Shown: in pieces, positions 6,026-43,932 of the stretch
How positions within the stretch are numbered: the stretch's first letter is position 1
How the letters are laid out: each line of letters begins with the position of its first letter
IMG/VR virus record: IMGVR_UViG_3300012983_000003
Coordinates: 1-64,000 of that record
Source: a virus
Lineage: Duplodnaviria; Heunggongvirae; Uroviricota; Caudoviricetes
DNA length: 64,000 nucleotides
Reading direction: 5' to 3' (one strand)
Made by a program: the position numbers and the translations under genes
Notes under the pieces: model-generated
Told to the model about the DNA's origin: nothing
The model's input: the letters and a program-made list of their open reading frames with translations, nothing else
Databases searched by the model: none

Positions 6026-6781
6026 ATGTATAGTGCAAACGCAAATATCATAACCGAAGCAAAAGATATTTGGGGTCTTTTTCAAAACAGTCGTGCAGAG
6101 TTACTACACGATATGGTAACAGTGGCAGAAAATGATGATTTTGATGTTATCATTTACCTCACTAACAATGATGGTAAACCCTGCTTAATGATTGAGTCAA
6201 GCAATGTTCAGAGTACCGAGTTTATCATCGAGGACGAAGCGAGTTGTGAGGCAACAGTATCAGAGGTATATGATACATACCTTACCGACAAAATCATAGA
6301 GGTCATCGCAGAGGAAGAAATGGAACTGGATTTAGAGCCAGAAGTTGTGATGGAAGAGCGAGAAGATGATATCACGAGTTTCTTTGTGAGATTGATTGAG
6401 GATTTATTCCCTGATGAGCCAATCATTTACAGTGAACTAATGGACGATTTGGTTGAAGACTGTAAAGAACATCTGCTTGAATGGTTCTATCGTAAACACG
6501 GTCTAAGCGTCTATCGTCCAATGGAATTGGAAGATGACGAGGGCGTGTTTGTTGAAGATTATCCGTATGAATGTATGGAATTTGAACCCAACCCAATGTA
6601 TGACGATTTTGAAGTCACGGACTTAGCCATTAACGGCAAAGATGTTATGGCTCTTGGTGTTCCGCAAGGCAAAGAAGTCGGAGATACTTTGGAGATGGTT
6701 CGCAAGTTTGTTGTCGGCGGTATTTTCCCGAACGACCACGACATCTTGATTGAAAGATTAAAGTCAATCAAGAAGAAATAA
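6026..6781 (+). CDS. Highly acidic protein (D/E-rich); possible DNA mimic
   Basis: Long runs of E/D in the translated ORF. Confidence 0.45.
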   Translation: MYSANANIITEAKDIWGLFQNSRAELLHDMVTVAENDDFDVIIYLTNNDGKPCLMIESSNVQSTEFIIEDEASCEATVSEVYDTYLTDKIIEVIAEEEMELDLEPEVVMEEREDDITSFFVRLIEDLFPDEPIIYSELMDDLVEDCKEHLLEWFYRKHGLSVYRPMELEDDEGVFVEDYPYECMEFEPNPMYDDFEVTDLAINGKDVMALGVPQGKEVGDTLEMVRKFVVGGIFPNDHDILIERLKSIKKK

Positions 6782-7894: not shown

Positions 7895-9391
7895 GTGTTT
7901 AGACAGGCAATCAATCAGACGGCATTGACATCTGATGCCGCTAACAGTTATTTTGAGCACATTCGAGGCGATAGTTATAACGGAGATGTTACCTTCCTCT
8001 CTACTTTGAGAGCACTTATTGCACCTCGTATGGCTGACGGCGAGTCGTTGTTTTTACGATTTGACCAATCTAATCTCAACGAAAGTACAGTTCGTGAAAC
8101 TCAACCAAAAAGACTTATCACGCACTTACTTCGCAATGTTGACATCAATCAGCCCGGCGTGTGCTATATCCATAGCGTTCAGAGTGGACGGCAGGAAGAT
8201 AATACTGCGTGTTTGGATGTTATTAAGTCAAACTTTGCAAGAGTTTACAACGGGTGGCATAGACTGCCTCGCGTATCCGATTTGTTTAGAAGCCAGTTTT
8301 ATACTTTGTGCTTCGTAAATCCAGAACTGAAATCGGTGGCGGTGTTTGTTGACAGTCTAAGCCAAAGCAAGATGCACTACTTACAGTGTGCAATTCTTGG
8401 TTTCTTCCCGTGGTATTTTAGTCCAGAAAAAGGCGTTACTCAGGACGAAATGGACTTAATTAACACATTAAGAGCCAAGGAACCCAATGACTACTCCGCT
8501 TGTATCGCAAAACTTTCGGAAAGATATGATTTCAGAACCGCAAGACTTAAGCAACAGCTTGCTGGATTTGAAACGATGTATGAAAGACAGCAGTGTGATA
8601 ATGTTCGACATAATATTACGGACTGTGATAATAAAATCGAAAGATATAACCAAAGCATAAGCGAACAACTTACGTATCGTAGAGACCTTGAAATTCAACT
8701 GCTCGGTCTCGAAGCGAAGATTGCCGCCGGTGGAGAGAATTCCGAAATTATGGATTATTTCATCCATAATAAGAGACTTGACTTGGATTATGTTAATAAT
8801 TCCGAGATGGTATTCACCATTAAGGATTACTTGTCGTATTTTGATGAAGACGCGGCAAAGCGCATTATTGATAACAGAAACAGTGTTATATATATGCCTG
8901 AAGGAAGAACTTGCAACAACTACATTAACGCGGGTAAGGTCAAGGAATTGATGTATGCCATCTTTATTGACCAGACCATACGCATCAGAGTATGTGCTGC
9001 ATATAAGTTCTCACTGACAGGAAACGTACACGGAATATCTGACTATCGATTTGGAGCCGAATTTGCAGGATATATGCCTAATCCGCACATTCAAGGTTAT
9101 AGCTGTATGGGTAATTACAGCAGACCAATTAACGAGTCTTTGCAGAAACACGATTATATCTCTGCGCTTGAGCAAACTATTGCATCAGCTAAGAGTCTAA
9201 ACTTTACAGACGGTACGGTAATGTCGTACTTTATGAAGAGAGTTTATGGCTTAGGCGACGGAGAAAATACTCGTGCAAGACGCAAGTGGTTTGAGTTACC
9301 CGATGGCACTTGTGTGACATCGGCTCAGGCGGCTGACTGGGTATGGTCTCAGAACCATCCTGATGGACAGGGGGAAACGACGAATGAGTAA
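7895..9391 (+). CDS. Large hypothetical protein (498 aa, GTG start); C-terminal region has an HPN-like E2/UBC active-site-like motif
   Basis: MPNPHIQGYSCMG aligns with the spacing of UBC HPNxxxxGxICL; rest unrecognised. Confidence 0.45.
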   Translation: MFRQAINQTALTSDAANSYFEHIRGDSYNGDVTFLSTLRALIAPRMADGESLFLRFDQSNLNESTVRETQPKRLITHLLRNVDINQPGVCYIHSVQSGRQEDNTACLDVIKSNFARVYNGWHRLPRVSDLFRSQFYTLCFVNPELKSVAVFVDSLSQSKMHYLQCAILGFFPWYFSPEKGVTQDEMDLINTLRAKEPNDYSACIAKLSERYDFRTARLKQQLAGFETMYERQQCDNVRHNITDCDNKIERYNQSISEQLTYRRDLEIQLLGLEAKIAAGGENSEIMDYFIHNKRLDLDYVNNSEMVFTIKDYLSYFDEDAAKRIIDNRNSVIYMPEGRTCNNYINAGKVKELMYAIFIDQTIRIRVCAAYKFSLTGNVHGISDYRFGAEFAGYMPNPHIQGYSCMGNYSRPINESLQKHDYISALEQTIASAKSLNFTDGTVMSYFMKRVYGLGDGENTRARRKWFELPDGTCVTSAQAADWVWSQNHPDGQGETTNE

Positions 9392-10379
9392 GGTTATTAA
9401 ACTCACAACTGAACAGTTACAGGAGTGCCGTAGAGATTTCGATACGGCACTTTCTACTATGAAGCTTACTGACGGTAAGATTTCTTTTATCAAGACCATT
9501 ACTTCTCCAAACGAAAAAGCAACTCTTTACTTCGACCCGCTTGCGTGGCGAAAAATGCAGACTCTTATAAAAGAATTTGATAAAGAGGTTGCTTGGCACG
9601 GCGTTGCATATCGCGGCGAGGATGAAACCAAAAATGAGTATTTCATCACTGATATTTTGGTTTATCCCCAGAAAGTTACCGGTGCTACCGTAAACACTGA
9701 CCAAGAGAAGTACGAGATGTGGTTAATGCAACACGAGGACGAAGTGTTCAATAATATTCGTATGCAGGGACATTCCCACGTGAATATGGCAACTTCTCCC
9801 TCTGGTGTTGATGAAACACATCAGGCAAAAATCCTTGAACAGCTCGAAGATGATATGTTCTATATCTTCTTGATTTGGAACAAATCCAACTCTAAGTTCA
9901 TCAAGATTTATGACCTCAAAAAGAACATCTTATTTGAGACCATTGATGTAACCGTGGAAATTCTTGATGATGGCTCGGGTATCGACGAGTTCTTGGCTGA
10001 TGCTAAGAAGTTAGTCGAAGATAAGCCGACTACATACTACAACGGCGGCAGTTATTATAGTGGTAACAACGGTTATCGCGGTTCTTATTATAACGGTCAG
10101 GGTGGCTACAGTGGTAGCACGGGTCAGACAGAAGCTAAAAAGGAAGAACCTAAGTCAGACGACAAGACTGGCGGTAAGGTTTTATCCTTTGATGATGTTA
10201 ACAAACAAATAAAAAATGGTTCTCAGTACGGTAAGAACGGCAAACGCAAGGGTAAGCGTAAAAAAAAAGAAAACATCGTTAACCCTAATAATGCTTCATC
10301 CGGCACTACTCAATTAACACTCTTTGATAGTGTGGACGAAGACCCATTTGGCAATAACGATAATTTTTTCCCAACGTGA
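9384..10379 (+). CDS. JAB/MPN (JAMM) metalloprotease-domain protein with G/Y/S-rich and basic C-terminal tail
   Basis: HSHVNMATSPSGVD fits HxHx7Sx2D, with an upstream Glu in EVAWHG. Confidence 0.7.
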   Translation: MSKVIKLTTEQLQECRRDFDTALSTMKLTDGKISFIKTITSPNEKATLYFDPLAWRKMQTLIKEFDKEVAWHGVAYRGEDETKNEYFITDILVYPQKVTGATVNTDQEKYEMWLMQHEDEVFNNIRMQGHSHVNMATSPSGVDETHQAKILEQLEDDMFYIFLIWNKSNSKFIKIYDLKKNILFETIDVTVEILDDGSGIDEFLADAKKLVEDKPTTYYNGGSYYSGNNGYRGSYYNGQGGYSGSTGQTEAKKEEPKSDDKTGGKVLSFDDVNKQIKNGSQYGKNGKRKGKRKKKENIVNPNNASSGTTQLTLFDSVDEDPFGNNDNFFPT

Positions 10380-10389
10380 GGTGAGCTAA

Positions 10390-10917
10390 TTGACAAGGCA
10401 AGAGTTTCTTGATGAGATTACCACTTGGTATGATTTGATTGAATGGTGCAATAACCATATGTGTTCTTATTGCGATGATATCTATAGCGATGAAGCACGA
10501 GATGAATACATTGACGAAGACCTTGTAGATATGGCTCGTAATAATAACTGGTATGAGTTAAGGGATATTCTCAGTAATCTCGCAACGGGACACGATTATT
10601 GGCGCAGAGATGAATACGGCGATTGGCACGGCGTTGATGACGAATTCGACGAATATTTCAACGATGTGCTTGAATGGGCTGATGAGAATGGCGAGTTCGA
10701 TGAAGAGGAAGAAGAACCCCTCTTTGTAGATGAAGATGACTACGAAGACGAAGCTGATGAATTTACCGTAGATACATCGGTAGCATTGGGTGATTTCTTC
10801 GCCTCGTCTGCCGACAACCTAACCAAAATCACATCAGAAGTAAAGGCTAACGAAGCCAAAGCAAATGCAGATTTCGATAAATTTACCCAACGAGTAACAA
10901 CCGTTGGAGATTATTAA
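10390..10917 (+). CDS. Highly acidic protein (TTG start); DNA-mimic candidate
   Basis: D/E-rich; runs of EEEEE. Confidence 0.45.
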   Translation: MTRQEFLDEITTWYDLIEWCNNHMCSYCDDIYSDEARDEYIDEDLVDMARNNNWYELRDILSNLATGHDYWRRDEYGDWHGVDDEFDEYFNDVLEWADENGEFDEEEEEPLFVDEDDYEDEADEFTVDTSVALGDFFASSADNLTKITSEVKANEAKANADFDKFTQRVTTVGDY

Positions 10918-10934
10918 GAAGGGAGATAATGCCA

Positions 10935-11609
10935 ATGATGGATTTAAGTAAATCCTACGAGTTTTTCCAGCCTGAAAAGTATGACGGCAGAATTCACATC
11001 ATCGGATGTGGTTCGGTAGGCTCGACATTAGCAGAAAACCTCGCTCGTTGTGGGGTTACAAAAATGACACTTTGGGATTTCGATACAGTCGAAAGCCACA
11101 ACATTGTAAATCAGATGTTCTCTCAACAGCACATCGGTAAGTCCAAGGTTGAAGCACTTGCAGATATCTTGGTTGACATTAACCCCTACATCAAGGACGA
11201 GCTTGAGCTTCAGCCGAAAGGTTGGCAGGGCAAACTGCTTTCCGGCTATATCTTCCTTTGTGTTGATAGCATTGAACTTCGCAGAGCGTTTGTCGAAAAG
11301 CATATGGACAGTCCGTATGTAAAAGCGGTATTTGATTTCCGAACTCTCCTCGAAAGTGCTCAGCACTACGCAGCGGATTGGTCGGACTACAAGATGAAGC
11401 AGACGCTTCTCAACTCAATGCAGTTCTCCCACGAGGAAGCCGCAGAAGAAACTCCCGTTTCTGCTTGTGGTATCACTCTTGGTGTAGCAACTACCGTTCG
11501 CCTTGTGTGTGCACTTGGCGTAAACAACTTCATCAACTTTGTAAAAGGCAACGGGATAAAGAAATTCGTTATGATTGACGGGTTCCGCTTTATCTTGGAT
11601 GCGTTCTAA
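10935..11609 (+). CDS. Minimal E1-like ThiF/MoeB/HesA-family adenylyltransferase
   Basis: [20 protein letters not shown]...[14 protein letters not shown] is the Rossmann/E1 signature; no rhodanese domain or CxxC. Confidence 0.7.
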
Positions 11610-12157
11610 TGAAGACTCGTTATAATCTGCTTGGTCAAACTTTTGATAGGTTAAAAGTAATTGAAGAAGTTGAGCCCTATATAGAACCATCCGGTAAGAA
11701 ACGATACCGATGGAAATGTTTGTGCGAGTGTGGCAATGAAACCATTGTTACAACTTGCAACTTACGAACTGGGCACACCCGAAGTTGTGGATGTCTGGAA
11801 GAGGAAGCTATATCAAGGATTTCTCACGACCCAAACATTCGCAGCAAAATTGCAAAGGCAAAAGTGAGACACGGACAATCTCATAGCAGATTATACGGGG
11901 TTTGGAACGCAATGAAACAACGGTGTCAAAACCCTAATAACGAAAAATATGCTTTGTATGGTGGTCGAGGGATAACCGTTTGTGAAGAATGGTTATCTTT
12001 CGACAATTTTTATGAATGGGCTATGCAAAGCGGATACGATGCTAACGCCCAGTATAGTGATTGCACTATCGATAGAATAGACCCGAACGGAAATTACGAA
12101 CCGTCAAACTGTCGATGGGCTAACGCTAAAACCCAAGCAAACAACAGACGAAACTAA
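11609..12157 (+). CDS. Putative HNH-family homing endonuclease (phage HNH with [11 protein letters not shown]...[12 protein letters not shown] module)
   Basis: Motif typical of phage HNH/AP2-type homing endonucleases; N-terminal Cys cluster. Confidence 0.6.
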
Positions 12158-12167
12158 TTTTAATTTA

Positions 12168-12481
12168 ATTTAACTGTAATGTTATCTGTTTCTTCCCCGA
12201 AGAAATGGCTTCTTACTGTTAGTGGAAGTAACAACTTGAGCAGAGCACGATACAGACAACCAGCAAAAACAGAGAAAGAAGACAGCGTTCCGATAAGCTT
12301 TTGTTTAATCATAAACCCATCTATTTGTCAAGTGTTTTCTACATTTATTTCTACGAAAGCATTGCGTTGCAACTCTTTCCCTAATTATTTTGCCAAGAAT
12401 TTGACCTGTTTTTCGAGTCTCAAGACACTTGTTTTAACGCGTTTAAAACAATCGTATTTCTATATTAGATTACAGTTAAAT
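12168..12481 (+). ncRNA. Candidate retron-like non-coding RNA (msr/msd-like) bounded by 13-nt inverted repeats
   Basis: atttaactgtaat (12168-12180) and attacagttaaat (12469-12481) form a perfect inverted repeat ending 22 nt before the RT start; internal hairpins; the 12179-12499 ORF is not credible. Confidence 0.5.
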
Positions 12482-12503
12482 CAATACGAACGGAGGTAAA
12501 TGA

Positions 12504-13874
12504 ATGTATTACATCACTGTTATGCAATCACCGATGTATCATCAGATGACTTTGGAAGAATTTTTGTTTGAAACAGAAAGTCGTCCGCAACTCATTAACC
12601 CCAATATGACCAACACTCGTACATACGAGGTTGAGAGTATCAGCGATAAGTTCTTGGAGCGTATTGATGTTGCAAAGTTAATCACGGCATTGGTGCAGTT
12701 CAATGAGGCTTTTGAGTCAGTACACAATCAGCCTCGCGAAAGCCTTTACAACACTTTCTATACCGAAAAGAAAGGTAAAGGTATGCCTTATGTATTCAAG
12801 AAAATGTTTGAAATTCAGAAGTCTTATGTCGAGTGCGACAGCTCTGCGGTTTGCAAAGAGGTTGGCACTACTTTAAGACAGATGTTAAGTCAGCACTCTA
12901 CCGATACCGATGCGGCTATTACCAAAACCGCAGTTGACCATTGTGTTAAGTATCTCACCGAGAACGGCTTTACTATCACATCTGAACAGCTTACTTCTAT
13001 CGTCAAGGAAGCATATCGTAGAATTGATGCTCCCAAGGACGAGTTATCCAACGCATTAAGACAGCTCAAGACTATCTTTGAGGAAAGATTTAATGCGTTA
13101 TATCACACCTCGGCTTTCGCCTATGTCAAGCGCCGTAGCACTTTGGATGCGGTTAAGCGTCATCAGGCAAACGAAAGCAAGTGGTTTGGTAAGTATGACT
13201 TATCGAACTTCTTTGGAAGCACAACCGTTGAATTCGTTATGAAGATGTTTTCAATGGTCTTCCCGTTCTCTGAGGTTGTGAAAGAACCCGTCGGTAAGAA
13301 CGCGCTCGAAACTGCAATTTCCCTTTGTATGTTAAACGGCGGTCTTCCGCAGGGTACTCCCATTTCCCCGCTGATTACTAACATTATGATGATACCTGTT
13401 GACTTTAAGTTAGCCAACGGTCTCAGAGATTTTAATAATCAGCGTTACATTTACACCAGATACGCGGATGACTTCCTCGTTTCTTCTAAATATGACTTTA
13501 AGTTCAGAGAAATCGAACAGTTCATCGTTGATACTTTGGCAAGTTTCGATGCTCCGTTCACCATTAAAGCCGAGAAGACTCGATACGGTTCTTCCGCTGG
13601 TTCTAATTGGAACCTCGGTGTAATGCTCAACAAGGATAATAACATCACTGTTGGGTATGAAAAGAAACGCAAGTTCCAAGCGATGCTCGCATCCTATGTG
13701 AAAGACCGTCAGAACGGTAATCCTTGGGATTTATCCGACATTCGCATTATGGAAGGTTATCGCAACTACTACAGAATGGTCGAGGGTGAAACCATCGACA
13801 AGTTAGTAGCGCACGTCGGCAATAAACTCGGCGTGGATATTGTTGAGCTTATCAAGGAAGACTTGAGAGCATAA
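12504..13874 (+). CDS. Reverse transcriptase, retron/Abi-like (not DGR type), with ~200-aa N-terminal extension
   Basis: RT motifs FAYVKRRSTLDAVKRH, KYDLSNFFGST, GLPQGTPISPLITNIMM, RYADDFLVSS. Confidence 0.85.
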   Translation: MYYITVMQSPMYHQMTLEEFLFETESRPQLINPNMTNTRTYEVESISDKFLERIDVAKLITALVQFNEAFESVHNQPRESLYNTFYTEKKGKGMPYVFKKMFEIQKSYVECDSSAVCKEVGTTLRQMLSQHSTDTDAAITKTAVDHCVKYLTENGFTITSEQLTSIVKEAYRRIDAPKDELSNALRQLKTIFEERFNALYHTSAFAYVKRRSTLDAVKRHQANESKWFGKYDLSNFFGSTTVEFVMKMFSMVFPFSEVVKEPVGKNALETAISLCMLNGGLPQGTPISPLITNIMMIPVDFKLANGLRDFNNQRYIYTRYADDFLVSSKYDFKFREIEQFIVDTLASFDAPFTIKAEKTRYGSSAGSNWNLGVMLNKDNNITVGYEKKRKFQAMLASYVKDRQNGNPWDLSDIRIMEGYRNYYRMVEGETIDKLVAHVGNKLGVDIVELIKEDLRA

Positions 13875-14517
13875 AGTTTCCAGTAATGTTATGACCAAGA
13901 TTTTATATTTTGGAGCTTCTCACTTTTAGTGGAAGTAACACGATGGCAAGAGGAAAACCAGAGATGACCCAGATGCAGACGGCTGCCTCTTCGTCTAATT
14001 TAGACGCCGGCATCCACTGTTCACATTCCGCCATCAGCAAAACCGTTGCATTGCAACGGTAAGGTAATCAGAAACCTTGCTGGTTTCCGGATACTTAGTA
14101 CCGCGGGCTCTCCTCCAGTAACGGTATTTCTGTAATAGATTACGGAAACGAAATTAAATCCATTAAGAACCCTGTTTGTGATGTATTGTATTCCTTTGAA
14201 TACACTTCTCGCTCTTAGCAGAAGTTTCATCTTGACGAGAACAGGACGGTGAGGAACTGGGAGTAAGACGACTGAAGTCGGAACCCTCCACGGGTTAATT
14301 TTCAGAGATTTCGTCATCAGTTGACATAATAACTGTCGGGAAATGGTTGCGTTGCAACCCAGCCCAATCCGAATTCCAAATCCGAACTGCTGTTTAACCA
14401 TCAAGTTAGCTTCCATCTCAGACATCTTTCAGGATTAGCGCTGCGGCTATTCTAATGTGGATTACATTCAGAGTTCTTATTGGATAAACCAAACTTAGAT
14501 TTTATTAACGAAAGCAG
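13875..14517 (+). ncRNA. Structured non-coding island downstream of the RT (hairpin-element copies, GTTGC-N3-GCAAC hairpins)
   Basis: 643 nt without credible ORF; several perfect stems (14043-14059, 14345-14359, 14204-14224). Confidence 0.4.
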
Positions 14518-14754
14518 GTGTATATTATGACCGTTTTTGATAGGTTTATGGAATTAACAAAAGAATTCACAGATATACACGATGCTTTCAAAGAATTATA
14601 TAACGAAATATGTAGGTTAAACCCAGACGATTTTGATAAAGCGTTATCCGATTTCGTAGACCTATATCACTCTGGTGATATATCCACACAACCTATCGTT
14701 GAAGAAAGTAGTCAAGAATTAAATCAGTTTCTTGCTGGATTTGAGGTGTCATAA
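14518..14754 (+). CDS. Hypothetical small protein
   Basis: ORF with RBS. Confidence 0.4.
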   Translation: MYIMTVFDRFMELTKEFTDIHDAFKELYNEICRLNPDDFDKALSDFVDLYHSGDISTQPIVEESSQELNQFLAGFEVS

Positions 14755-14984
14755 TGAATTGCTACACTTTCGATGAATTTATTGAGCAGGTGTATAAACC
14801 TCGTGATTATTGCAAGAGATTTGCAGTGATAGACCTTTACGAAACGCTAATGCAATACAATCGCGGAGTAATACTTTCTATTGATGGTGAGGAATTTAAG
14901 GTTGTTCCGCATAGTCAAGAGGTTGTTAAGGAATGTAGTCCAGAAATGAATGACTTTATAAATTGTTTTGCACAGGTGGTGTGA
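14754..14984 (+). CDS. Hypothetical small protein
   Basis: ORF, translationally coupled. Confidence 0.4.
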   Translation: MNCYTFDEFIEQVYKPRDYCKRFAVIDLYETLMQYNRGVILSIDGEEFKVVPHSQEVVKECSPEMNDFINCFAQVV

Positions 14985-14987
14985 TGA

Positions 14988-15248
14988 ATGAATATCGCTA
15001 AATTATGTGAGTTGCTTAACTTTATCAAAGTTAATAATTCGTGGGGTACTGATATGTATTACATCAACCACGAAAGAAATCGCAAATCAATTAAGTATGT
15101 GGATTTCTGCTTCGATAGTAGAGACGGTAGTATATGGTACATCAAATGCCGTGCTGTTACTGGAGAACCAGATAAGGAATTTCGCATAGAAAACCAAAAG
15201 GATTTGGATAAGTTTTACGAGTGGCTTAATGAGCCTTTGAATAAATAA
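14988..15248 (+). CDS. Hypothetical small protein
   Basis: ORF. Confidence 0.4.
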   Translation: MNIAKLCELLNFIKVNNSWGTDMYYINHERNRKSIKYVDFCFDSRDGSIWYIKCRAVTGEPDKEFRIENQKDLDKFYEWLNEPLNK

Positions 15249-15288
15249 ATTCAGGATGGTTTTTGTCTTTTAAGGACTATCCAATTAG

Positions 15289-15318
15289 CCGTTGTGTTGC
15301 AACGGGTTTTAAAAAATT
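15289..15318 (+). terminator. Stem-loop ccgttg..caacgg followed by ttttaaaaaa
   Basis: Hairpin plus T-run. Confidence 0.5.
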
Positions 15319-15353
15319 CTACAACCTAAGTGGTTGTAAAACGGAAAGGAGTG

Positions 15354-16172
15354 GTTGTTTTGACGAACAGAGAAGTTGCGAATAAGTTGTTCGACTATAT
15401 TCGTAAGAATTCTAAATTTGACCCGTATGATATTGAGTACGGAGATACATATTTCGTCTTTACCGGCGACCCAGATAGTGTAATTCACTTTCGAGTAAAA
15501 GGTGTCAGTAAACAATGGAAGTTTGGTATGTGGGTACACGCTGAATTCCTTGGCGACAGCGAACACTCCGAAGACCCCGTTATTCAGTTCTTCGCCCAGT
15601 GGGAAAAGGATATTGATAAGTTCAAGCCATCACGAAGCGATATTTGTGTAAAAATAACCGCACAACAGTTTGCCGAAGATGTCGATAACGATGGTTGGAT
15701 GTATTACGATATTATGCACGCACTTGATATGATGAGAAATCACCCTATTCTCTGTTATTGCGGAATTTGTGGAGAAGATGGTTATGGATATACAAGCATC
15801 AAGAGCTTCACTTGGTATTTTATCAAGGGCGAATTTTATCATTTCAAAAAGGCAGTCTCGAAAGCATTGATGACTGCAATTTTCCTGCCGATTTGCAAAT
15901 TCAAGGTATGGAGAGCAAATCGCCACAAGTGTGTAGAACTATGCGAGATATATAATTTCGAGAAACGGAACCCCGGATGGTCTACATCACACGATTACTG
16001 TATCGAGTGTAATTTTAAAGAGTCGGCTACCGATGAAGAAATGTATAAGGTGGCTCGCATCTTTAAGAGACAAAGATATGGTAAGTATGGTTGTTTCCAG
16101 AGAGTCGCAGAGATTGACTGCTATACTCAAACAGGTAGAGACGGTTGTTTTGGATTTTCGTTTGATGATTGA
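15354..16172 (+). CDS. Hypothetical Cys-rich protein (start uncertain, TTG or GTG)
   Basis: ORF with AAAGGAG RBS; multiple CxxC motifs. Confidence 0.45.
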   Translation, partial: VVLTNREVANKLFDYIRKNSKFDPYDIEYGDTYFVFTGDPDSVIHFRVKGVSKQWKFGMWVHAEFLGDSEHSEDPVIQFFAQWEKDIDKFKPSRSDICVKITAQQFAEDVDNDGWMYYDIMHALDMMRNHPILCYCGICGEDGYGYTSIKSFTWYFIKGEFYHFKKAVSKALMTAIFLPICKFKVWRANRHKCVELCEIYNFEKRNPGWSTSHDYCIECNFKESATDEEMYKVARIFKRQRYGKYGCFQRVAEIDCYTQTGRDGCFGFSFDD

Positions 16173-18379: not shown

Positions 18380-19100
18380 AAATGTTTAAAACGGTGCGGT
18401 TTTTATGAAACTGTCAAATGTCCATCAAAGAGGAAAGCAGCCGTCAGCGTCCCCGTATGTAGATTGATTGAATGATACTTTTACACTTTTGTTATACATA
18501 AATCAGCCAATCACTTCTTGCTGTCAGCAGAAGTTCCAATTTGTAAGTTACGCTCTATTCGTTAGAAATAATTAGCCTTCCGTGCGATGCTTCGACATCG
18601 CACTTCCGCTATTTATTTCTAACCACCGACTGAAAATAGCCTACTTTTAAAAGTTGCGCAGGGCGCTCCTTTTAAAAGCATCAATTTTCAGCGGTGCCGA
18701 GCGACGCTACGGCATTTGCTTGGGCTACCTCAAGCTTGACGCCCATAGCAAACGGATACGGGGACAAAATCTGATATTTCAGCGCGACTATATAAGTATT
18801 CTCTGCAATATGAGATAACTTTGAACCGCGCTTTAATATACCCACAATGTAGATTGATTATCTTTCTTTTGAATTTTATTCGTTATACATAAACGATAAT
18901 CGCTTCTTACTGACAGTAGAAGTTGCGAAATGTTAGAGGTTCCTCGCGTGTCTCATCAACGAGATGTCACACGAGGCTTATTGCGCACGAGGCGCAAACA
19001 GCCACGAGTAACATCCCTATGATGAGACTACTAATCTCGCTCTCGCTCGTGCATAGATTTAACTCTTCACCGAAGAGTAAATCTACAGGATTGTGGGTAA
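18380..19100 (+). other. Structured non-coding island: two copies of the tgtagattgatt / gttatacataaa / hairpin module, nested inverted repeats
   Basis: No credible ORF; IR gttagaaataa/ttatttctaac around the gtgcgatg..catcgcac stem; palindromic cttttaaaag x2. Confidence 0.4.
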
Positions 19101-19108
19101 TAATATAT

Positions 19109-19184
19109 GCCTATGTAGCTCAGATGGATATGAGCAGCCACGCACAGAGTGGTATGCCGTGGGTTCGAGTCCCACTATAGGCGA
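19109..19184 (+). tRNA. tRNA-like gene with unusual anticodon loop gcacaga (anticodon ACA?; C at position 33)
   Basis: Acceptor, D, T (gtggg-ttcgagt-cccac) arms fold; anticodon stem gccac/gtggt. Confidence 0.5.
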
Positions 19185-19345: not shown

Positions 19346-19813
19346 ATGATTAAACACATTAAGGGCGATATTTTTCAGAGCAACGCAGATGTAATTCTCC
19401 ACCAAGTAAATTGCCAAGGCGTAATGGGTAGCGGAGTTGCAAAGCAGGTACGCGAGAAATATCCGTGGGTTTTCGGTTACTACAAACATCTTTGCGATGA
19501 CGCAAAGAAACTTCCAAACGGGACAAAATCCTTGCTCGGTGTCTCGCAGTTCATATTCATTGACGAAACGAGACAAATCGGTAATCTGTTTGCCCAAGAC
19601 CGTTTTGGATACGATGGTAAGTGCTACTCTGACTATGAAGCATTAAAGAAATGCTTGACATATGTCAAGTTGAAGTTTGATGGCAAAAAGATTGCCATTC
19701 CGTATTTAATGGCTTGTCACAGAGGCGGCGGAGATTGGAATACGGTTTATAAAATCATTGAAGAAACACTCGCTGGTTGCGATGTTACTTTATACGAATA
19801 CAACGGAGGTTGA
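19346..19813 (+). CDS. Macro-domain protein (ADP-ribose binding/processing)
   Basis: GDIFQSNADVILHQVNCQGVMGSGVA is the macro-domain signature. Confidence 0.75.
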   Translation: MIKHIKGDIFQSNADVILHQVNCQGVMGSGVAKQVREKYPWVFGYYKHLCDDAKKLPNGTKSLLGVSQFIFIDETRQIGNLFAQDRFGYDGKCYSDYEALKKCLTYVKLKFDGKKIAIPYLMACHRGGGDWNTVYKIIEETLAGCDVTLYEYNGG

Positions 19814-19815
19814 GT

Positions 19816-20349
19816 ATGAAAACGCTGATTGTTATTGATATGCAGAATGACTTTGTTACCGGTGCTCTCGGTTCCAAAGAAGCAGTTGCAATTCTGCCCA
19901 ATGTAAAGAAGAAAATTGAAGAGTATGTTGCCGCAGGTGACGAGGTAATTTTCACTCGTGATACTCACGGCGAACAGTATCTCGAAACTAATGAGGGTAA
20001 ACATCTCCCTGTTCCTCACTGTATTAAGAATACAGAGGGTTGGAATGTTGTTCCCGAGATTGATATTCCCGACCGCGAACATATTGATAAGCCCACATTC
20101 GGTTATACAGGCTGGACTTTCTTGCGTGACGGCGACAGAGTGATGGGAATGAGAAACCTCACCGATGTAGAAATCATTGGTGTTTGCACAGATATTTGTG
20201 TGGTTTCCAACGCTCTTATCCTTAAGGCTTTCTATCCTGAAATCAACATTACGGTTGATGCAAGTTGCTGTGCCGGTGTAACACCCGAGTCACATCAGGC
20301 AGCATTAGCGACTATGAAGTCTTGCCAAATCAATGTAATCGGAGAGTGA
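19816..20349 (+). CDS. pncA: Isochorismatase-family nicotinamidase (PncA-like)
   Basis: LIVIDMQNDF start; isochorismatase-fold pattern. Confidence 0.65.
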   Translation: MKTLIVIDMQNDFVTGALGSKEAVAILPNVKKKIEEYVAAGDEVIFTRDTHGEQYLETNEGKHLPVPHCIKNTEGWNVVPEIDIPDREHIDKPTFGYTGWTFLRDGDRVMGMRNLTDVEIIGVCTDICVVSNALILKAFYPEINITVDASCCAGVTPESHQAALATMKSCQINVIGE

Positions 20350-20353
20350 TTAA

Positions 20354-21151
20354 ATGATTAAACTCAATGGTACACCCGTTGAAATTAACAAATTTCCCGA
20401 CGGCACACTTTTAATGAAGCAGGAATACAGTGAAGCACAGCTCGATGTAATCGACTGGAGATTTCAGAACAACGAAGAGCTTGTCGCGTTGTATTTCTTA
20501 ACTAATCATCTTCGTGATAGTGGTGCAAAAAATATCGAGTTAAGAATGTGGTATATCCCTAACGCAAGACAGGACAGGGTTAAAAAGTCTGAAGATATTT
20601 TCACCCTGAAATACTTTGCAAAGTTTATCAACTCATTAAAATTCAACAAAGTTCGTGTGTTAGACCCTCACTCCTCTGTATCGGGAGCGCTGTTTGATAA
20701 TCTTCACGAGGGTAAGCCCGAGTTCCTCATTGCCGAGGTTTATGACAGAGTTTCCGAAATTGTGGGTAGCGAAGAGACAATTATGTTCTATCCAGACGAG
20801 GGCGCTATGAAGCGTTACTCTGGTATGATTTCTAAGCCGTATGCGTTTGGTATCAAGGAACGCGACTGGTCTTCGGGTCAAATTAGAGGTCTCTCTGTCT
20901 TTGGAGAAGATATTGTTAAGGGTCGCAACATTTTGATTGTTGATGATATTAGCAGTAGAGGTGGTACATTCTACCATAGCGCCAAGAAGCTTAAAGAACT
21001 TGGAGCAGAAAGAATTTTCCTCTTTGTAAGCCATTGCGAAAACACAATCCTTGAGGGTGAGGTTTTGTCCAGTGGTTTGATTGAAAGAGTTTATACAACC
21101 GACAGTCTGTTTACAGCAGAACACGAGAAAATTGAGGTGATTGAAATATGA
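20354..21151 (+). CDS. Ribose-phosphate pyrophosphokinase (Prs)-family enzyme; possibly an ADP-ribose pyrophosphokinase of an NAD-reconstitution pathway
   Basis: YIPNARQDR, VRVLDPHSS and ILIVDDISSRGGT align with Prs motifs. Confidence 0.65.
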   Translation: MIKLNGTPVEINKFPDGTLLMKQEYSEAQLDVIDWRFQNNEELVALYFLTNHLRDSGAKNIELRMWYIPNARQDRVKKSEDIFTLKYFAKFINSLKFNKVRVLDPHSSVSGALFDNLHEGKPEFLIAEVYDRVSEIVGSEETIMFYPDEGAMKRYSGMISKPYAFGIKERDWSSGQIRGLSVFGEDIVKGRNILIVDDISSRGGTFYHSAKKLKELGAERIFLFVSHCENTILEGEVLSSGLIERVYTTDSLFTAEHEKIEVIEI

Positions 21152-22629
21152 GAACAAATCCTATGCTTTTGATTGACTTCTATAAAGCAGTTCACGCTGA
21201 AATGCTCCCAAAGGGCATCACGAAGTCTGTATCTTATTACACCCCTCGAATGAGTCGTGTTAAACGCTGGGATAAGGTTGTTATGTTCGGTTTACAGGGC
21301 TTTATTAAGACTTATCTCATTGATTATTTCAATGAGTATTTCTTCAAGAGACCGTTTGCCGATGTGATGTTTGAGTACAAAAGAGTTATGGATGCTTCGC
21401 TTGGCGAGGACACCTATAATATCGGTAAGATTATCAATCTTCATAAACTTGGATATCTTCCTATCGAAATCGTGGCTCTTCCCGAGGGTACAAGAGTGCC
21501 TATCCACTGCCCGATGTTCGGTATTACCAATACTCACCCCGATTTTGCTTGGCTCCCACAGGCTCTTGAGAGTTTAATCTCCGCTGAGACTTGGCATCCC
21601 CAACTCGCCGCAACAGTCGGTTACACCTACCGCGAAATCGTAAATCATTATTATGATTTAACTTGTGACGACAATATTCCGAGAGCAAGAGCTCTTGGTG
21701 CTTTTGACTTCCGCGGTGAAGAGTGTCTTGAGTCTGCTGTTAAGGCTGGTGCTGGTTGGTGTTTATCTTTCTTAAATACCGCCACCGTGCCTGTAATTCC
21801 TTACCTTGAACAGAACTACAACTGTGATTGCACTAAGGAACCCGTGGCTTTCGGTAGTCCGAGCACAGAGCACTCTGTTATGTGCAGTAACTATGCGGTT
21901 GACGGTGATGAAATCACCCTGTTAAGACGCTTACTTACTGAGATTTATCCCAACACAAACTTTTCCGCCGTTCTTGACTCTTATGACTACTGGAACATCA
22001 TTGACAATGTTCTTCCGCAGTTAAAGAAAGAGATTATGGAACACAACGGTTGTATGCTTATGCGTGGCGACTCTGGAGATTGCGTTGAGGTTGTTACCAA
22101 GACTGTTTTCAAGCTTTGGGAACACTTCGGCGGCACTATCAACAGTAAGGGTTATAAGGTTCTTGACCCGCACGTCAAGGCTATTTACGGCGATAGCATT
22201 ACCGTTCAGAGATGCGAAGAAATCTATAAGATTTTAATGGAGAACGGCTTTGCTTGTTCCAATGTTGCTCTCGGTGTTGGTTCGTTCTCGTTCCAGTGTA
22301 TCGAGGAAGACGGCGAACTCAAGCCTTTTACAAGAGATACATTCAGTTCTTGTATTAAGGCAACTTACTGCGAGATTGACGGTAAGCCTACCCCGATTTT
22401 CAAGAACCCCAAAGACGGCGGTTTCAAGAAGTCGCAGAAAGGTTGCTGTGTTGTGGTAGCACGAGGCGATAGTTTTGATTTCGTTGACGGAAGAACTTGG
22501 GACGAAGCCCACGGCTCTGGAAAGAGTGCTGATGTTAACGCACTTAAAACAGTGTTTAAGGACGGCAAGATTGTTAAGGAACAGTCTTTGGCAGAAATCA
22601 GAAAAGTATTACACGGAGGCGAGTTTTAA
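21148..22629 (+). CDS. nadV: Nicotinamide phosphoribosyltransferase (NAMPT/NadV) family enzyme
   Basis: LLIDFYKAVH, LPIEIVALPEG, FDFRGEE, MRGDSGD, KGYKVLDPHVKAIYGDSI match NAMPT. Confidence 0.8.
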   Translation: MRTNPMLLIDFYKAVHAEMLPKGITKSVSYYTPRMSRVKRWDKVVMFGLQGFIKTYLIDYFNEYFFKRPFADVMFEYKRVMDASLGEDTYNIGKIINLHKLGYLPIEIVALPEGTRVPIHCPMFGITNTHPDFAWLPQALESLISAETWHPQLAATVGYTYREIVNHYYDLTCDDNIPRARALGAFDFRGEECLESAVKAGAGWCLSFLNTATVPVIPYLEQNYNCDCTKEPVAFGSPSTEHSVMCSNYAVDGDEITLLRRLLTEIYPNTNFSAVLDSYDYWNIIDNVLPQLKKEIMEHNGCMLMRGDSGDCVEVVTKTVFKLWEHFGGTINSKGYKVLDPHVKAIYGDSITVQRCEEIYKILMENGFACSNVALGVGSFSFQCIEEDGELKPFTRDTFSSCIKATYCEIDGKPTPIFKNPKDGGFKKSQKGCCVVVARGDSFDFVDGRTWDEAHGSGKSADVNALKTVFKDGKIVKEQSLAEIRKVLHGGEF

Positions 22630-25766: not shown

Positions 25767-25789
25767 ATTCCTGTAATGAAAATCGTCAT

Positions 25790-26090
25790 TTCTGGCTGAA
25801 AAAGCAATTTAAGGAAATGAAGCTTCTTGCTGATAGCAGAAGTAACTCTTTGTCAAGAGGAAGAATGTGCAGCAGGCGATGAGCGAGCCCTGCAATGCAG
25901 GTGATTGCCGGGTAGTTACAGGGGAAACTTCGACGGTAGCACGGAGGAAGCGTTGCATTGCAACATCTCATCCTCCATTGCCCACCCCTGTCTCCTGAGC
26001 TGTCCACTCCTGCGTCAGGAAAGATGAAGGCGAACCTTCACCTCCTTCCTATATGAGATTACAGGTAATAACTTTTAGGTGGTGATACAT
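25790..26090 (+). other. Structured non-coding island (hairpin-element copy at 25822-25842, GTTGCATTGCAAC at 25942-25954, ctgcaatgcag palindrome)
   Basis: No credible ORF; shared motifs. Confidence 0.4.
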
Positions 26091-28007: not shown

Positions 28008-29210
28008 ATGATTGAATTACGAGGAAAGTATGGCGAAGCAAAGGTTTACACCGATGTAGTTGACAACGAGTCAATTTCTCAGGTTATTAACCTTTTGAAC
28101 CAACCCTATGTTGAGGGTAGCCGAGTGCGTATAATGCCCGATATTCACGCTGGTGCCGGTTGTACTATCGGTACTACAATGACCATCCAAGATAAGATTT
28201 GTCCTAATCTTGTTGGAGTTGACATCGGTTGCGGTATGGAAACAATCCGTATCAAAGAGAAACATATCGAACTTCAGAGTCTCGATAAGTTAATTCGCAA
28301 TGAAATCCCGTCTGGTTTTGCAATTCGTAATAAACCTCACAGATACAACGAGCAAATTGATTTAGACAGTTTATACTGTGCTAAACATATTAAGCTCGAC
28401 AGAGCAAGACTGAGTGTAGGCACTCTCGGTGGTGGAAATCATTTCATCGAAGCCAATAAGGACGATGATGGTAATATCTACATTGTCGTACACTCAGGAA
28501 GCAGACACCTTGGTTTAGAAATCGCAAATTACTACCAAGAGGCAGGTTACAAAGCCCTTACTTCATTTAATAAAGCTGAGATTGACGCAGTAATAGCGCA
28601 ACTCAAATCTGACGGAAGACAATCCGAAATTCAAAAGGTGCTCAAGGGTATGAAGAAACATACCTCAATTCCTAAACCTCTCGCGTATGTTGAGGGCGAG
28701 CTTTTAGACCAATATCTGCACGATATGAAGATTGCGCAAGAATTTGCAATGTATAACCGTAAGGCTATGATTGATGTAATAGTCAAAGGTCTCGGACTTC
28801 ATATCACAGAGCAATTCACAACTATCCATAACTATATTGATATTGAGAATAAGATACTTCGTAAAGGTGCGGTTTCTGCACAAGACGGAGAGGTTCTGCT
28901 CATTCCAATCAATATGAGAGACGGAAGTTTGGTCTGCGTTGGTAAAGGCAACGAGGACTGGAATTACTCTGCTCCGCACGGTGCGGGTCGGTTAATGAGC
29001 CGAAGCGCCGCAAAAGAGACATTTACCGTGTCGGAATTTAAAAAGCAAATGGAAGGCATATATACCACCTCGGTCGGTCATAGTACGCTTGACGAATGTC
29101 CTATGGCGTATAAGCGCATCGAAGACATCGTGGATAATATATCGCCTACCGTTGATATAAAGGCGATTATTAAGCCAATCTATAACTTTAAGGCTGGTGA
29201 AGAGAGTTAA
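28008..29210 (+). CDS. rtcB: RtcB-family RNA 3'-phosphate ligase
   Basis: MPDIHAGAGCTIG, GGNHFIE, NYSAPHGAGR. Confidence 0.85.
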   Translation: MIELRGKYGEAKVYTDVVDNESISQVINLLNQPYVEGSRVRIMPDIHAGAGCTIGTTMTIQDKICPNLVGVDIGCGMETIRIKEKHIELQSLDKLIRNEIPSGFAIRNKPHRYNEQIDLDSLYCAKHIKLDRARLSVGTLGGGNHFIEANKDDDGNIYIVVHSGSRHLGLEIANYYQEAGYKALTSFNKAEIDAVIAQLKSDGRQSEIQKVLKGMKKHTSIPKPLAYVEGELLDQYLHDMKIAQEFAMYNRKAMIDVIVKGLGLHITEQFTTIHNYIDIENKILRKGAVSAQDGEVLLIPINMRDGSLVCVGKGNEDWNYSAPHGAGRLMSRSAAKETFTVSEFKKQMEGIYTTSVGHSTLDECPMAYKRIEDIVDNISPTVDIKAIIKPIYNFKAGEES

Positions 29211-41256: not shown

Positions 41257-41928
41257 ATGTTTGAATTTTTTATAGCCTTGTTTGGTGGCTTGTTCTGGGG
41301 TGGAAAATTATCTAACGAAAAATCTGCCGCTAAAAAAGCAGACCAAGACCATCAGCATAGAATGGATACCTACTTTTCTCGCAAAAACAATTTTGAGAGA
41401 AAGGTTTTAGACAGAGAGCTCGAGGCTGATTTAGAAGACCTTATTTATGATACTTCTAATTATGATAAGGTTTGGGCTGAGGTTTCTAAGGCGTTCGATG
41501 AAATGCCGTGGAAGCCAGAAGACGAGAAGTTCATTTGTATTTGTCCAGAAGCAGTGGATGCTGTGTTCGGAAAAGGTACTTACACTAAGAAACAAAAGGA
41601 ACAAATCGCAGCCAACTATCGCAAAGAAGCTCTTAGAATAATGATGGCTAATCGTGGTAAACTCACTCATAATGATGTGTGTGTTGGTTTTTACTCAATC
41701 GGTCAAGGTGCACCGACCGTTAGAATGGGTGAAAAATGGAACGCCGAGTCCGCAAACTTTGTGTTATGGATAAACTCAAAGCTCAAAGAACACGGCGTCG
41801 ATGAAAATGTTTACATTTGCACATCACATAATGAATACTGGGCTATCAACGAAAGAACCAAAAGTTATTCTGGTAAATATGTTTGGTTTCCAGAGATATT
41901 GCCAAGCGGGGCTACAATTCATTCATAA
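41257..41928 (+). CDS. Hypothetical protein
   Basis: ORF. Confidence 0.4.
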   Translation: MFEFFIALFGGLFWGGKLSNEKSAAKKADQDHQHRMDTYFSRKNNFERKVLDRELEADLEDLIYDTSNYDKVWAEVSKAFDEMPWKPEDEKFICICPEAVDAVFGKGTYTKKQKEQIAANYRKEALRIMMANRGKLTHNDVCVGFYSIGQGAPTVRMGEKWNAESANFVLWINSKLKEHGVDENVYICTSHNEYWAINERTKSYSGKYVWFPEILPSGATIHS

Positions 41929-42713
41929 ATATAACTCGGTAAATCAATTTTGCAATCCAACAATACTTTACCATAACACCTTACCGATGCCTCGCTGTCT
42001 GCTCCAATAAAGACATTGGTATTTCTAAGTCTTGGGTTTGCAGACACGAGGATGAGGTTTCTGTCCTCATCAACGAAATATTGCTTACAATACATAGCGC
42101 CATCAACACAGAATATACCGACATCTCCTATGGATAGTTCGCAATCTTTCTTTACATACACGGTATCTCCGTCTTTAATGTACGGATACATACTATTACC
42201 TTGAATACCAACCGCAAAATCCGCATCGGTTGGAACATTATCATCAACCAGTATCATCTCAAAGTCATCTCCGTCAAGCGGTACAGAGTAACCGGCAGCG
42301 GACGGAGTGGTATATCTCGGTATATATCTGCTGGGTTTTGTCTCGAACGAAATAATCTCTGCTTTCGGTTTAGGTTTCCTTTCCGCCTCAACACGAGATT
42401 TTTCAAGCACACATAGAGTATCTACCGCCTTTCGACCGTATTTATCTAACACTCTATAGTTTGACAGCAAGGTTATTTCTTGCTGATTTAATAAGAGATT
42501 ATCCTTTTCGGGTTCGATACTTACTCCAAGCAAATAATCGGTGGTTACATTAAAGACCTTAGCCATTGATACAATGGCGAGCATTGAGGGGTTTTTAATT
42601 CCTGTTTCCCAGTTTCTAATACTTACTTCCGAGACCTTGAGATAAGTACCAAGTTCTTTCTGTGTCATAGAGTTTTTCATTCTCAGTGACTTAATTCTAT
42701 CGCAGAGTTCCAT
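41919..42713 (-). CDS. CI/LexA-like repressor: N-terminal XRE-type HTH plus C-terminal S24 peptidase domain (probable start at internal Met, GGAGGG RBS)
   Basis: MTQKELGTYLKVSEVSIRNWETG HTH; S24-like GDVGIFCVDGAMYCKQ...; only minus-strand gene. Confidence 0.75.
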   Translation of the reverse strand: MELCDRIKSLRMKNSMTQKELGTYLKVSEVSIRNWETGIKNPSMLAIVSMAKVFNVTTDYLLGVSIEPEKDNLLLNQQEITLLSNYRVLDKYGRKAVDTLCVLEKSRVEAERKPKPKAEIISFETKPSRYIPRYTTPSAAGYSVPLDGDDFEMILVDDNVPTDADFAVGIQGNSMYPYIKDGDTVYVKKDCELSIGDVGIFCVDGAMYCKQYFVDEDRNLILVSANPRLRNTNVFIGADSEASVRCYGKVLLDCKIDLPSYIYE

Positions 42714-42744
42714 AATTGCCCTCCATAAAAATTTCTCTTTGGGT

Positions 42745-42780
42745 GTTGACATCTGAGGAGTTTTATGTTACCATTAGACC
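42745..42780 (+). promoter_or_regulatory. Candidate rightward promoter (TTGACA - 17 - TACCAT)
   Basis: -35 match at 42745-42750. Confidence 0.35.
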
Positions 42781-42795
42781 ACAACAAAAGTTTCT

Positions 42796-42841
42796 ATTCG
42801 TATTATAACCGATACAAAAGTATTTGTCAAGCGATACGAAT
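42796..42841 (-). promoter_or_regulatory. Consensus sigma-A-type promoter for the repressor (TTGACA - 17 nt - TATAAT on minus strand) flanked by inverted repeat ttcgtat/atacgaa (operator candidate)
   Basis: RC of 42802-42830 reads ttgacaaatacttttgtatcggttataat. Confidence 0.55.
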
Positions 42842-43053
42842 AAAAAAGACGACCCACCCAACCACAGATGAGTCGTCCGCCCACAGAACAACCACTCTGT
42901 GAGCTAATTGAAAGCCTGTATATCCAACCTCTAATGACACACGGATTGGATACACAACACTACAAACGGAGCCGACGGTACAACCACGAACCATCAACCC
43001 CGCTTGTAGTATATCACAAAGATTTCAAAAAATCAATGGAGGATACTACAAAA

Positions 43054-43371: not shown

Positions 43372-43406
43372 ATGTAAATTTTTTGTGAACAGATTATATA
43401 ATTACC

Positions 43407-43436
43407 TTGACAAACGCATATAGTGTGTGTTATACT
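43407..43436 (+). promoter_or_regulatory. Strong promoter TTGACA - 18 nt - TATACT immediately upstream of the MazF-like gene
   Basis: cttgacaaacgcatatagtgtgtgttatact. Confidence 0.55.
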
Positions 43437-43481
43437 GTCGTCGTAAGATAAATTACGGCGAAAGGAAATTTAATACACTTA

Positions 43482-43910: not shown

Positions 43911-43932
43911 TACATAACAAGGAGGTTTTCTT

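Follow-up and report, generated by a model that had tools for sequence, protein, structure and literature searches.

Retrons are generally understood as bacterial abortive-infection systems that consist of one reverse transcriptase (RT), one non-coding RNA (ncRNA) and one effector. Those borne by prophages or satellites, for example Ec73 on a P4-like element, have a single ncRNA with a fused or adjacent effector. Thirteen types of retrons have been distinguished; two opposing G residues are a feature of their msr-msd ncRNAs, and their RTs bear the signatures NAxxH (region X, between RT2 and RT3, the H being most conserved) and VTG (region Y, in RT7, the G being most conserved) (Mestre et al. 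2020, PMC7736814). A retron-like RT, MarsHill gp206, is known from Staphylococcus aureus jumbo phages, where an ncRNA in the 1.2-kb upstream non-coding region was hypothesised and none was defined (bioRxiv 10.1101/2020.12.14.422802). Synthetic retron arrays have been engineered as multitrons (PMC10370050). Here we analyse a locus on a 64,000-nt stretch of a Caudoviricetes virus (IMG/VR record IMGVR_UViG_3300012983_000003, positions 1 to 64,000; "the window" in the following), in which a preliminary description had recognised a retron-like element made up of an RT gene and a non-coding region in front of it. The type of the RT as well as the architecture, covariation, copy number and conservation of the associated RNAs were computed here. 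We propose that the locus is probably a retron-derived module on a large element of gut Clostridia, a phage or phage-plasmid that is probably temperate. Its paralogous msr-msd-like ncRNAs would form an array served by a single retron-type RT.

The reverse transcriptase and its RNA copies

The RT gene lies on the plus strand at 12504..13874 and encodes 456 amino acids (aa), with an RVT_1 domain at aa 183-363. The matches listed by PADLOC were retron RT models throughout (25/25), led by RT_II-A (127.5 bits, 1.8e-37) and followed by I-B (106.7), I-A (103.5) and III-A (97). Among the NCBIfam models, retron_St85_RT ranked first (147 bits), ahead of group II (77), Ec67 (72) and Drt2 (42), with Drt3a at 31 bits, and the best sequence matches in PDB were the RTs of Ec83, Ec78, St85, Kva2, Ec86 and Ec67. 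The AlphaFold2 model (27-sequence alignment; predicted local distance difference test, pLDDT, 82.8) had the retron RTs 9n69_E, 9kjx_A, 9e8z_H and 9nnb_B as its top Foldseek matches (template modelling score about 0.72, target-normalised; root mean square deviation 3.2-3.5 over about 292 columns), with the structures of DRT2 and DRT9 ranking well below. By profile, sequence and predicted fold, the enzyme thus appears closest to retron RTs, a placement by similarity rather than by formal phylogeny. This agrees with the preliminary description, which had assigned its motifs to the retron/Abi type and not to that of diversity-generating retroelement (DGR) RTs. Judged from its sequence, it would be a retron-type RT outside the curated retron families, with no known type assignable (RT_II-A is best at 127 bits, I-B next at 107). 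Membership in the DRT2/DRT9 class was considered and rejected, given the low scores for Drt2 and Drt3a and the position of the DRT structures well below the retron RTs.

Since phage RTs are most often DGR RTs and the group II RT model is a secondary match at 77 bits, one may ask if the gene is a remnant of a DGR or a group II intron. This is barely conceivable: the RT is not of DGR type, no template/variable repeat pair occurs within the 64-kb window, neither Rfam families nor intron RNA domains were found in 11000-16000, and the 77 bits stand against 147 bits for the retron model.

The catalytic box RYADD is intact, as had been stated, and is followed by the thumb. The two retron signatures turned out to be looser than claimed. 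At the NAxxH position (aa ~216-220) the RT reads AVKRH, aligned to NAKIH of Ec83; the H is invariant in the family, while N and A are replaced. NLG aligns to VTG of Ec83 and Ec78, G372 being invariant in the family and V and T replaced. An N-terminal extension of about 200 aa had also been described. Only part of it is one: the family alignment reveals a conserved N-terminal region of about 90 aa (aa 1-~90), whereas the remainder is a 77-aa helical insertion within RT motif 1 (aa ~95-171), which here reads TEKKGKG, then the 77 aa, then YRRIDAP. A large sister group of 380-aa proteins has IPKKSGGLRKIDAP instead. The family exists in two forms, one of 456 aa with the insertion (about 12786-13016 in the window) and one of 380 aa with the canonical IPKKSGGLRxIDAP, and the multi-ncRNA arrangement accompanies both.

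The interval in front of the RT (12158-12503) is bounded by an HNH endonuclease gene (11609-12157) and the 456-aa RT open reading frame (ORF). As the preliminary description had reported, it harbours a perfect inverted repeat: the 13-mer ATTTAACTGTAAT occupies 12168-12180, and its reverse complement follows at 12469-12481. By our own estimate, a perfect 13-nt inverted repeat is expected by chance about 1e-3 times within ~340 nt. The repeats sit within imperfect 21-nt arms (12165-12185 / 12464-12484), and the second one stops 22 nt short of the RT ATG (12504), with the ribosome binding site GGAGG (12492-12496) in between. A G-flanked repeat of this kind (a1-G...G-a2, at least 8 bp, ending at most 70 nt 5' of the RT start) is present in 38/63 related loci compared with 45/299 random anchors, so that the inverted repeats recur in homologous loci.

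We designate this region, which spans 12165..12484 on the plus strand (about 315 nt, non-coding, same strand as the RT), as msr-msd-like ncRNA copy 1. It scored 68.9 bits with R1, a covariance model built on the ncRNA 5' module. Its parts are a1 (12168-12180), a candidate branching G (12181), hairpin 1 (HP1, 12188-12206), hairpin 2 (HP2, 12208-12229), the small hairpin ATTGCGTTGCAAC (12361-12373), an opposing G (12468) and a2 (12469-12481). The small hairpin had been taken as a copy of a recurrent element, and its motif indeed has 8 matches in the window versus 0.47 expected. A 106-codon ORF (12179-12499) crosses copy 1. We rejected a coding role of the ncRNA intervals, since the frame from the branch-site ATG is not conserved (median length 14 codons, at least 50 codons in 6 of 55 elements), which supports the earlier classification of the interval as non-coding.

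According to the preliminary description, the element ended at 13874. This had to be given up, and the 640 nt behind the RT are no empty spacer: using repeat families of the window, alignment and nhmmer, we detected two more RNA copies directly behind the RT and a fourth further downstream, all on the plus strand. Copy 2 (13876..14149; 56.2 bits; fold z = -4.5) begins 2 nt past the RT stop codon and comprises a1 at 13876-13887 (with one bulged A), G 13888, HP2 within 13915-13940, the hairpin CCGTTGCATTGCAACGG at 14043-14059, the opposing G 14138 and a2 at 14139-14149. Copy 3 (14158..14485; 63.5 bits; fold z = -4.4) has its a1 region at 14158-14182 (3' end GTGAT, forming a G.U wobble with ATTAC), G 14183, HP2 within 14204-14229, the hairpin GGTTGCGTTGCAACC at 14345-14359, the opposing G 14460 and a2 at 14461-14485. 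Copy 4 is dispersed, lying 12 kb 3' of the RT (25770..26065; 41.7 bits), with a1 at 25770-25777, G 25778, HP2 at about 25822-25846, the hairpin GTTGCATTGCAAC at 25952-25964, the opposing G 26057 and a2 at 26058-26065. The feature is thus to be extended to 12165-14485 plus 25770-26065. The RT is accompanied by a minimum of three related ncRNAs of retron style, and four or more are probable.

Two degenerate relatives of uncertain membership are found on the plus strand at about 18480-18860 and 18861-19100 (29.5 and 20.0 bits). Both keep an HP2-like hairpin, the canonical GTAAT-G / G-ATTAC ends are gone, and the first has an A at the branch position. They occupy a 700-nt non-coding stretch immediately 5' of tRNA-Cys and tRNA-Thr, and each is preceded by ATGTAGATTGATT; the second terminates in a perfect terminator-like hairpin (about 19046-19085).

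Structure, distribution and proposed use of the RNAs

Copies 1-4 share a common plan. A variable a1 arm ending in GTRAT is followed by a G, 4-5 unpaired bases and the sequence-variable HP1; then come HP2 (CTTCTYRCT-GTN-AGYRGAAG) and GTRACA-ACTTGA, a variable middle of ~150-200 nt including the small conserved (G/A)TTG-N5-CAA(C/T) hairpin, ATNTAG, and an a2 arm starting with ATTAC. R1 yielded 61 matches in the window plus 21 IMG/VR loci, 12 in four closer relatives and 60 in 69 GTDB loci; in the tally of these searches, 131/131 matches were oriented as the RT. A further 25 matches came from additional pieces of the same phage genomes.

For the terminal stem we aligned 10 nt of a1 plus G, joined by an artificial linker to G plus 10 nt of a2, from 46 distinct elements. 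Paired cells made up 90.4%, compared with 68.6% in shuffles and 28-43% with a slid partner; the first of these values is inflated by our script, which picked the a2 sites by rewarding complementarity and a preceding G. The covariation score was 0.60, which 0/500 shuffles attained, versus 0.215, and double-sided changes occurred in 10/10 pairs. The innermost pairs remain unbroken (G-C in 37 and A-U in 9 elements at one position, U-A in 27 and C-G in 19 at another), the core variants being GTAAT/ATTAC, GCAAT/ATTGC, ACAAT/ATTGT, GTGAT/ATCAC, GCGAT/ATCGC and GTAAC/GTTAC. Next to the stem, the G following a1 shows no variation, and the one preceding a2 is more than 90% conserved. The a1/a2 arrangement of retrons, inferred earlier from the single repeat, is thereby borne out. 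At the sequence level, a1-G...G-a2 corresponds to the opposing-G geometry of retron msr-msd transcripts, the branching itself being a prediction.

These data also speak to the idea that we are dealing with miniature inverted-repeat transposable elements or selfish DNA repeats of another kind, which we regard as very improbable. A length of ~300 bp, terminal inverted repeats, several copies per genome and intergenic positions would all fit. The terminal repeats vary between copies, however, and yet stay complementary, which argues for selection on pairing and not on a transposase binding site. Moreover, 131/131 copies share a single orientation with respect to the RT, their positions are syntenic among relatives, and neither target-site duplications nor a transposase were seen.

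For HP2, four pairs have compensatory changes, and RNAalifold recovered this hairpin from the 5' module. HP1 was not recovered in this way; because its length varies, we examined it by per-sequence folding. It forms in 80/94 distinct elements with unrelated sequences, at a mean minimum free energy (MFE) of -4.08 kcal/mol compared with -0.68 kcal/mol for shuffles. The two 5' hairpins thus retain their structure despite changing sequences, in line with the 1-3 hairpins of retron msr. The middles are too divergent between relatives for a covariation test, and the MAFFT alignment of whole elements is unreliable there. When they were compared with the rest of the 64-kb window (blastn-short), only the shared conserved motifs were found, and no target or variable repeat-like partner.

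The folds of whole elements give a mixed picture. The a1/a2 stem closes in all copies, as anticipated for the upstream region, whereas the MFE folds have a multibranched middle in place of the single long msd hairpin of classical retrons, copy 1 folds barely better than shuffles (z = -1.9) and has no Rfam match. It has to be asked if the RT is templated by these RNAs without being a retron. It would then make no 2'-5' branch and would use protein-based, RNA-3'-end-based or template-jumping-based priming like DRT2/DRT9-type systems, perhaps yielding concatemeric or homopolymeric cDNAs. The long, multibranched middle would suit such a mode, as would the unusual N-terminal region and 77-aa finger insertion of the RT, its score under the retron family cut-off and the presence of DRT2 and DRT9 RTs among the weaker structural matches. 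We nevertheless hold it to be unlikely, given that the RT clearly matches retron models and retron structures best and that a1-G...G-a2, which covaries strongly, is the priming architecture of retrons.

The RT family is large: a search for relatives gave 4403 proteins at E < 1e-10, a count that probably takes in more distant RTs. The related loci were found on IMG/VR contigs of 64-123 kb and in metagenome-assembled genomes, with some relatives on contigs of 200-430 kb and one locus (L082) in a cultured isolate, Clostridiales Family XIII bacterium PM5-7. Most of the assembled genomes belong to Oscillospiraceae, Lachnospiraceae, Acutalibacteraceae, Christensenellales and other Clostridia, and the gut hosts include human, rabbit, horse, sheep, goat, chicken and termite. 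By megablast, the locus had no match among the GenBank phages.

Among the 55 loci with full flanks, 31 have RNA copies on both sides of the RT. One upstream copy is combined with one downstream copy in 14 loci, with two in 16 and with three in a single locus; four loci have one upstream copy only, three have one or two downstream copies only, and 17 have neither. In other genomes, further copies occur 2-7 kb from the RT. The 17 loci without R1 match are those with the most divergent RTs, and the model is probably too narrow to reach them; several still have a family-like a1-G...G-a2 immediately 5' of the RT. In MT835544.1, whose RT is 42% identical, an upstream RNA has a1 AATTGTGAT-G and TTTAG-ATCACGATT, and its HP1 and HP2 sequences differ. 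Where the RT genes share 91% of their nucleotides, identity between the RNAs is 92-100%. With RTs at 80%, the RNAs still agree to 74-82% over their 5' 80 nt, but the middle, which diverges much faster than the RT gene, is essentially unalignable. The sequences thus point to constrained RNA ends and a middle that is free or diversifying, which resembles msr versus msd of retrons.

It may be argued that the repeated elements are structured phage RNAs (regulatory RNAs, processing signals or small RNAs) that act independently of the RT and neighbour it by inherited gene order. Copies also lie 2-12 kb from the RT, the genomes are all syntenic relatives, so that co-occurrence is partly inherited, and the GTTGCnnTGCAAC hairpin is found in a terminator-like context at 15283-15320 as well. 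On the other hand, the RNAs remain beside the RT where the surroundings differ (loci L029 and L037, which lack the module otherwise found upstream) and in the distant family of MT835544.1, and a position directly 5' of the RT start together with the paired-G geometry is what a retron RT requires. We consider independence from the RT quite unlikely.

Returning to an RT that serves an array of msr-msd-like RNAs, we infer co-transcription, priming, cDNA synthesis and cDNA length as follows. Copy 1, the RT gene and the two copies behind it (2 and 3) share one strand with short gaps, which makes their co-transcription probable. Each RNA would fold independently, its terminal a1/a2 stem juxtaposing the G after a1 and the G before a2, and HP1 and HP2 would likely form the RT recognition site. 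With the 2'-OH of the a1-proximal G as primer, the RT would begin at the base preceding the a2-proximal G and reverse-transcribe the variable middle of each RNA. An infected or lysogenic cell may thus contain several different RT-DNA/RNA hybrids.

Two further observations concern the transcription unit. The palindrome GTTGnnTTGCAAC, which is also the conserved small hairpin within the ncRNAs, recurs at 15283-15320, after the third of three small ORFs downstream of copy 3; there, with a T run behind the hairpin (CCGTTGTGTTGCAACGGGTTTTAAAAAATT), it resembles a terminator that would close the RT transcription unit. In a scan for sigma-70 promoters and terminators, sites were no commoner than in shuffles.

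Several points weigh against the reading we favour and have to be kept in mind. The RT reaches 147 bits where the NCBIfam retron cut-off is 235, and NAxxH and VTG are only partly preserved. The Rfam scan of 11000-16000 at E up to 1 matched zero families, the fold of copy 1 and the lack of a single msd hairpin are atypical as set out above, and R1 found zero RNA in 17/55 fully flanked loci. The scripted choice of a2 sites favours pairing, and an unanchored search for G-flanked inverted repeats was positive in 206/374 windows; because of this 55% background, such a search is uninformative, and anchoring to the RT start is needed. Finally, no known retron effector was found near the RT, the PADLOC matches among the neighbours being limited to the E1 domain of a ThiF-like protein (see below).

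Neighbouring genes and the carrier element

The three small ORFs at 14518-15248 (78, 76 and 86 aa) had been proposed as possible effectors. This finds no support, as they have zero Pfam or PADLOC matches and are restricted to the closest relatives. They share a repeated DNA motif with a spacing of 227-246 nt and may be paralogues of one another.

A candidate partner module lies upstream on the plus strand at 9363..11609 and is linked to the RT by synteny only. It encodes p338, a JAB/MPN+-like metallopeptidase (9363-10379) with the motif E...HSHx7SxxD, the strongly acidic 175-aa protein p175 (10390-10917) and a ThiF/E1-like adenylyltransferase (10929-11609); 5' of the module, p498 (7895-9391, plus strand) is a 498-aa protein without family match. 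The block p498 - p338 - (p175) - ThiF-like precedes the RNA-RT unit in ~79/94 loci, down to 37% RT identity. Across the family, p338 keeps the motif E...H-S-H-x7-S-x2-D without change, and a fold search with its model (pLDDT ~80 in the core and 59.6 overall) yielded CSN5, Rpn11, BRCC36 and bacterial BubCD as matches; from motif and modelled fold, p338 is assigned as a JAB/MPN+-like peptidase. Searches of p498, p338 and p175 against Pfam, PHROGs, PADLOC, NCBIfam and PDB sequences gave zero matches, and the JAB motif surfaced only through family alignment and fold search. Among GenBank phages, this JAB-like protein was found only in the record that also carries the best RT homologue.

In its gene content, the block at 7895-11609 resembles a module for ubiquitin-like conjugation or deconjugation that is carried by phages. 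It is missing from the 5 kb around the RT in L029, L037, L048 and L058. Because L029 and L037 keep the RNAs without the block, RNAs and RT appear to form a tighter unit than RT and JAB/E1 module, whose link rests on synteny.

The HNH homing-endonuclease gene (11609-12157; PHROG 374, 1e-64) separates the ThiF-like gene from copy 1, and most relatives are without it. In locus L024, an HNH gene with 40% identity is present at the same site, in addition to a 300-aa ORF between the RT and copy 2. This suggests that the junction between the ThiF-like gene and copy 1 was invaded repeatedly.

As to the carrier, the window encodes a DnaE-type polymerase, DnaB, a primase, ERF and a PD-(D/E)XK nuclease for replication and recombination. 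Among cultured relatives, Clostridioides difficile phages of ~132 kb come nearest for the polymerase (39% identity). Lysogeny-type genes are located at 41919-44892, where a helix-turn-helix (HTH) plus peptidase S24 (CI/LexA-like) repressor, the sole large annotated gene on the minus strand, adjoins an MrpR-like recombinase. From this gene content, a temperate phage or phage-plasmid is probable, rather than a strictly lytic phage. Additionally, we found NrdD (nucleotide metabolism), three enzymes grouped under RNA and DNA repair, namely a DNA ligase, RtcB (28008-29210) and a CCA-adding-like enzyme (6026-6781), and five tRNAs. For one of these, tRNA-Cys at 19108-19184, ARAGORN gives the anticodon ACA; an A at the wobble position is unusual for Cys. 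A cluster for NAD salvage at 19777-22629 comprises an isochorismatase-family protein (possibly a nicotinamidase), Prs (ribose-phosphate pyrophosphokinase) and Nampt (nicotinamide phosphoribosyltransferase). NAD salvage sets are phage counter-measures to NAD-depleting immunity. The NAD salvage cluster, RtcB, the CCA-adding-like enzyme, the ligase and the tRNAs place the RT in a region of accessory or conflict genes.

As the biological role of the system, we consider a part in conflict between phage and host or between phages most likely. The lysogen could be protected via an unrecognised effector, possibly the linked JAB/E1 module, or the products of the system could be decoy or sponge nucleic acids against host immunity. 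It is also possible, if rather doubtful, that a widespread family of phages or phage-plasmids of gut Clostridia makes several single-stranded DNAs (ssDNAs) at once from a natural template array without a classical toxin effector, the products acting as decoys or sponges (for instance by mimicking host retron msDNA or occupying ssDNA-sensing defences) or as partners of the JAB/E1 module. If true, such a multi-ssDNA phage system would be a new functional class of retron.

Comparison with known systems

Compared with bacterial retrons, of which type I-A Ec78/Eco7 and Ec83, followed by Ec86, have the nearest solved RTs, the module agrees in RT fold and sequence family, in an ncRNA directly 5' on the same strand, in an a1/a2 stem with opposing Gs, in 1-3 msr-type hairpins past the branch G and in a variable template region. 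On sequence-testable features it is retron-like except for four, on which it deviates or is ambiguous: effector, long msd hairpin, NAxxH/VTG and family cut-offs. In contrast to bacterial retrons, it has 3-4 or more paralogous ncRNAs per RT, including downstream and dispersed ones; no effector is recognised, NAxxH and VTG are partial and a single long msd hairpin is not predicted; the RT has an extra N-terminal region and the 77-aa motif-1 insertion and scores below curated cut-offs; and the carrier is a phage-like element of ~120 kb.

Prophage- and satellite-borne retrons (e.g. Ec67/Eco2) likewise reside on temperate mobile elements and plausibly serve the lysogen, with a single ncRNA and an effector where we find several ncRNAs. 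For the MarsHill type, a related Staphylococcus phage RT was matched by tblastn (34% identity over the RT core); family and host are different, the N-terminal parts being without similarity detectable by tblastn. Like engineered multitrons, the module would provide one RT with several msd templates per cell; unlike them, its array is natural and conserved and not synthetic. In the literature we searched, which covered few subscription-journal papers, so that absence is not proof, no natural retron with several template RNAs was found, the MarsHill remark and the engineered multitrons coming closest.

What we describe would therefore be a phage-borne, multi-ncRNA, effector-less (or JAB/E1-linked) retron-like system, of which the natural multi-RNA array appears to be the new aspect. 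This raises the question if a single retron RT can naturally work on several templates, what purpose several RT-DNAs have, and if phages have adopted retron chemistry for purposes of their own. The tight synteny with the JAB/E1 module suggests a possible link of reverse transcription with ubiquitin-like conjugation; to our knowledge, though with no literature search aimed at it, no such link has been reported. The ~90 related loci from the guts of animals and humans supply many natural RNA variants built around a common RT-recognition module, which should be directly useful for multiplexed retron engineering.

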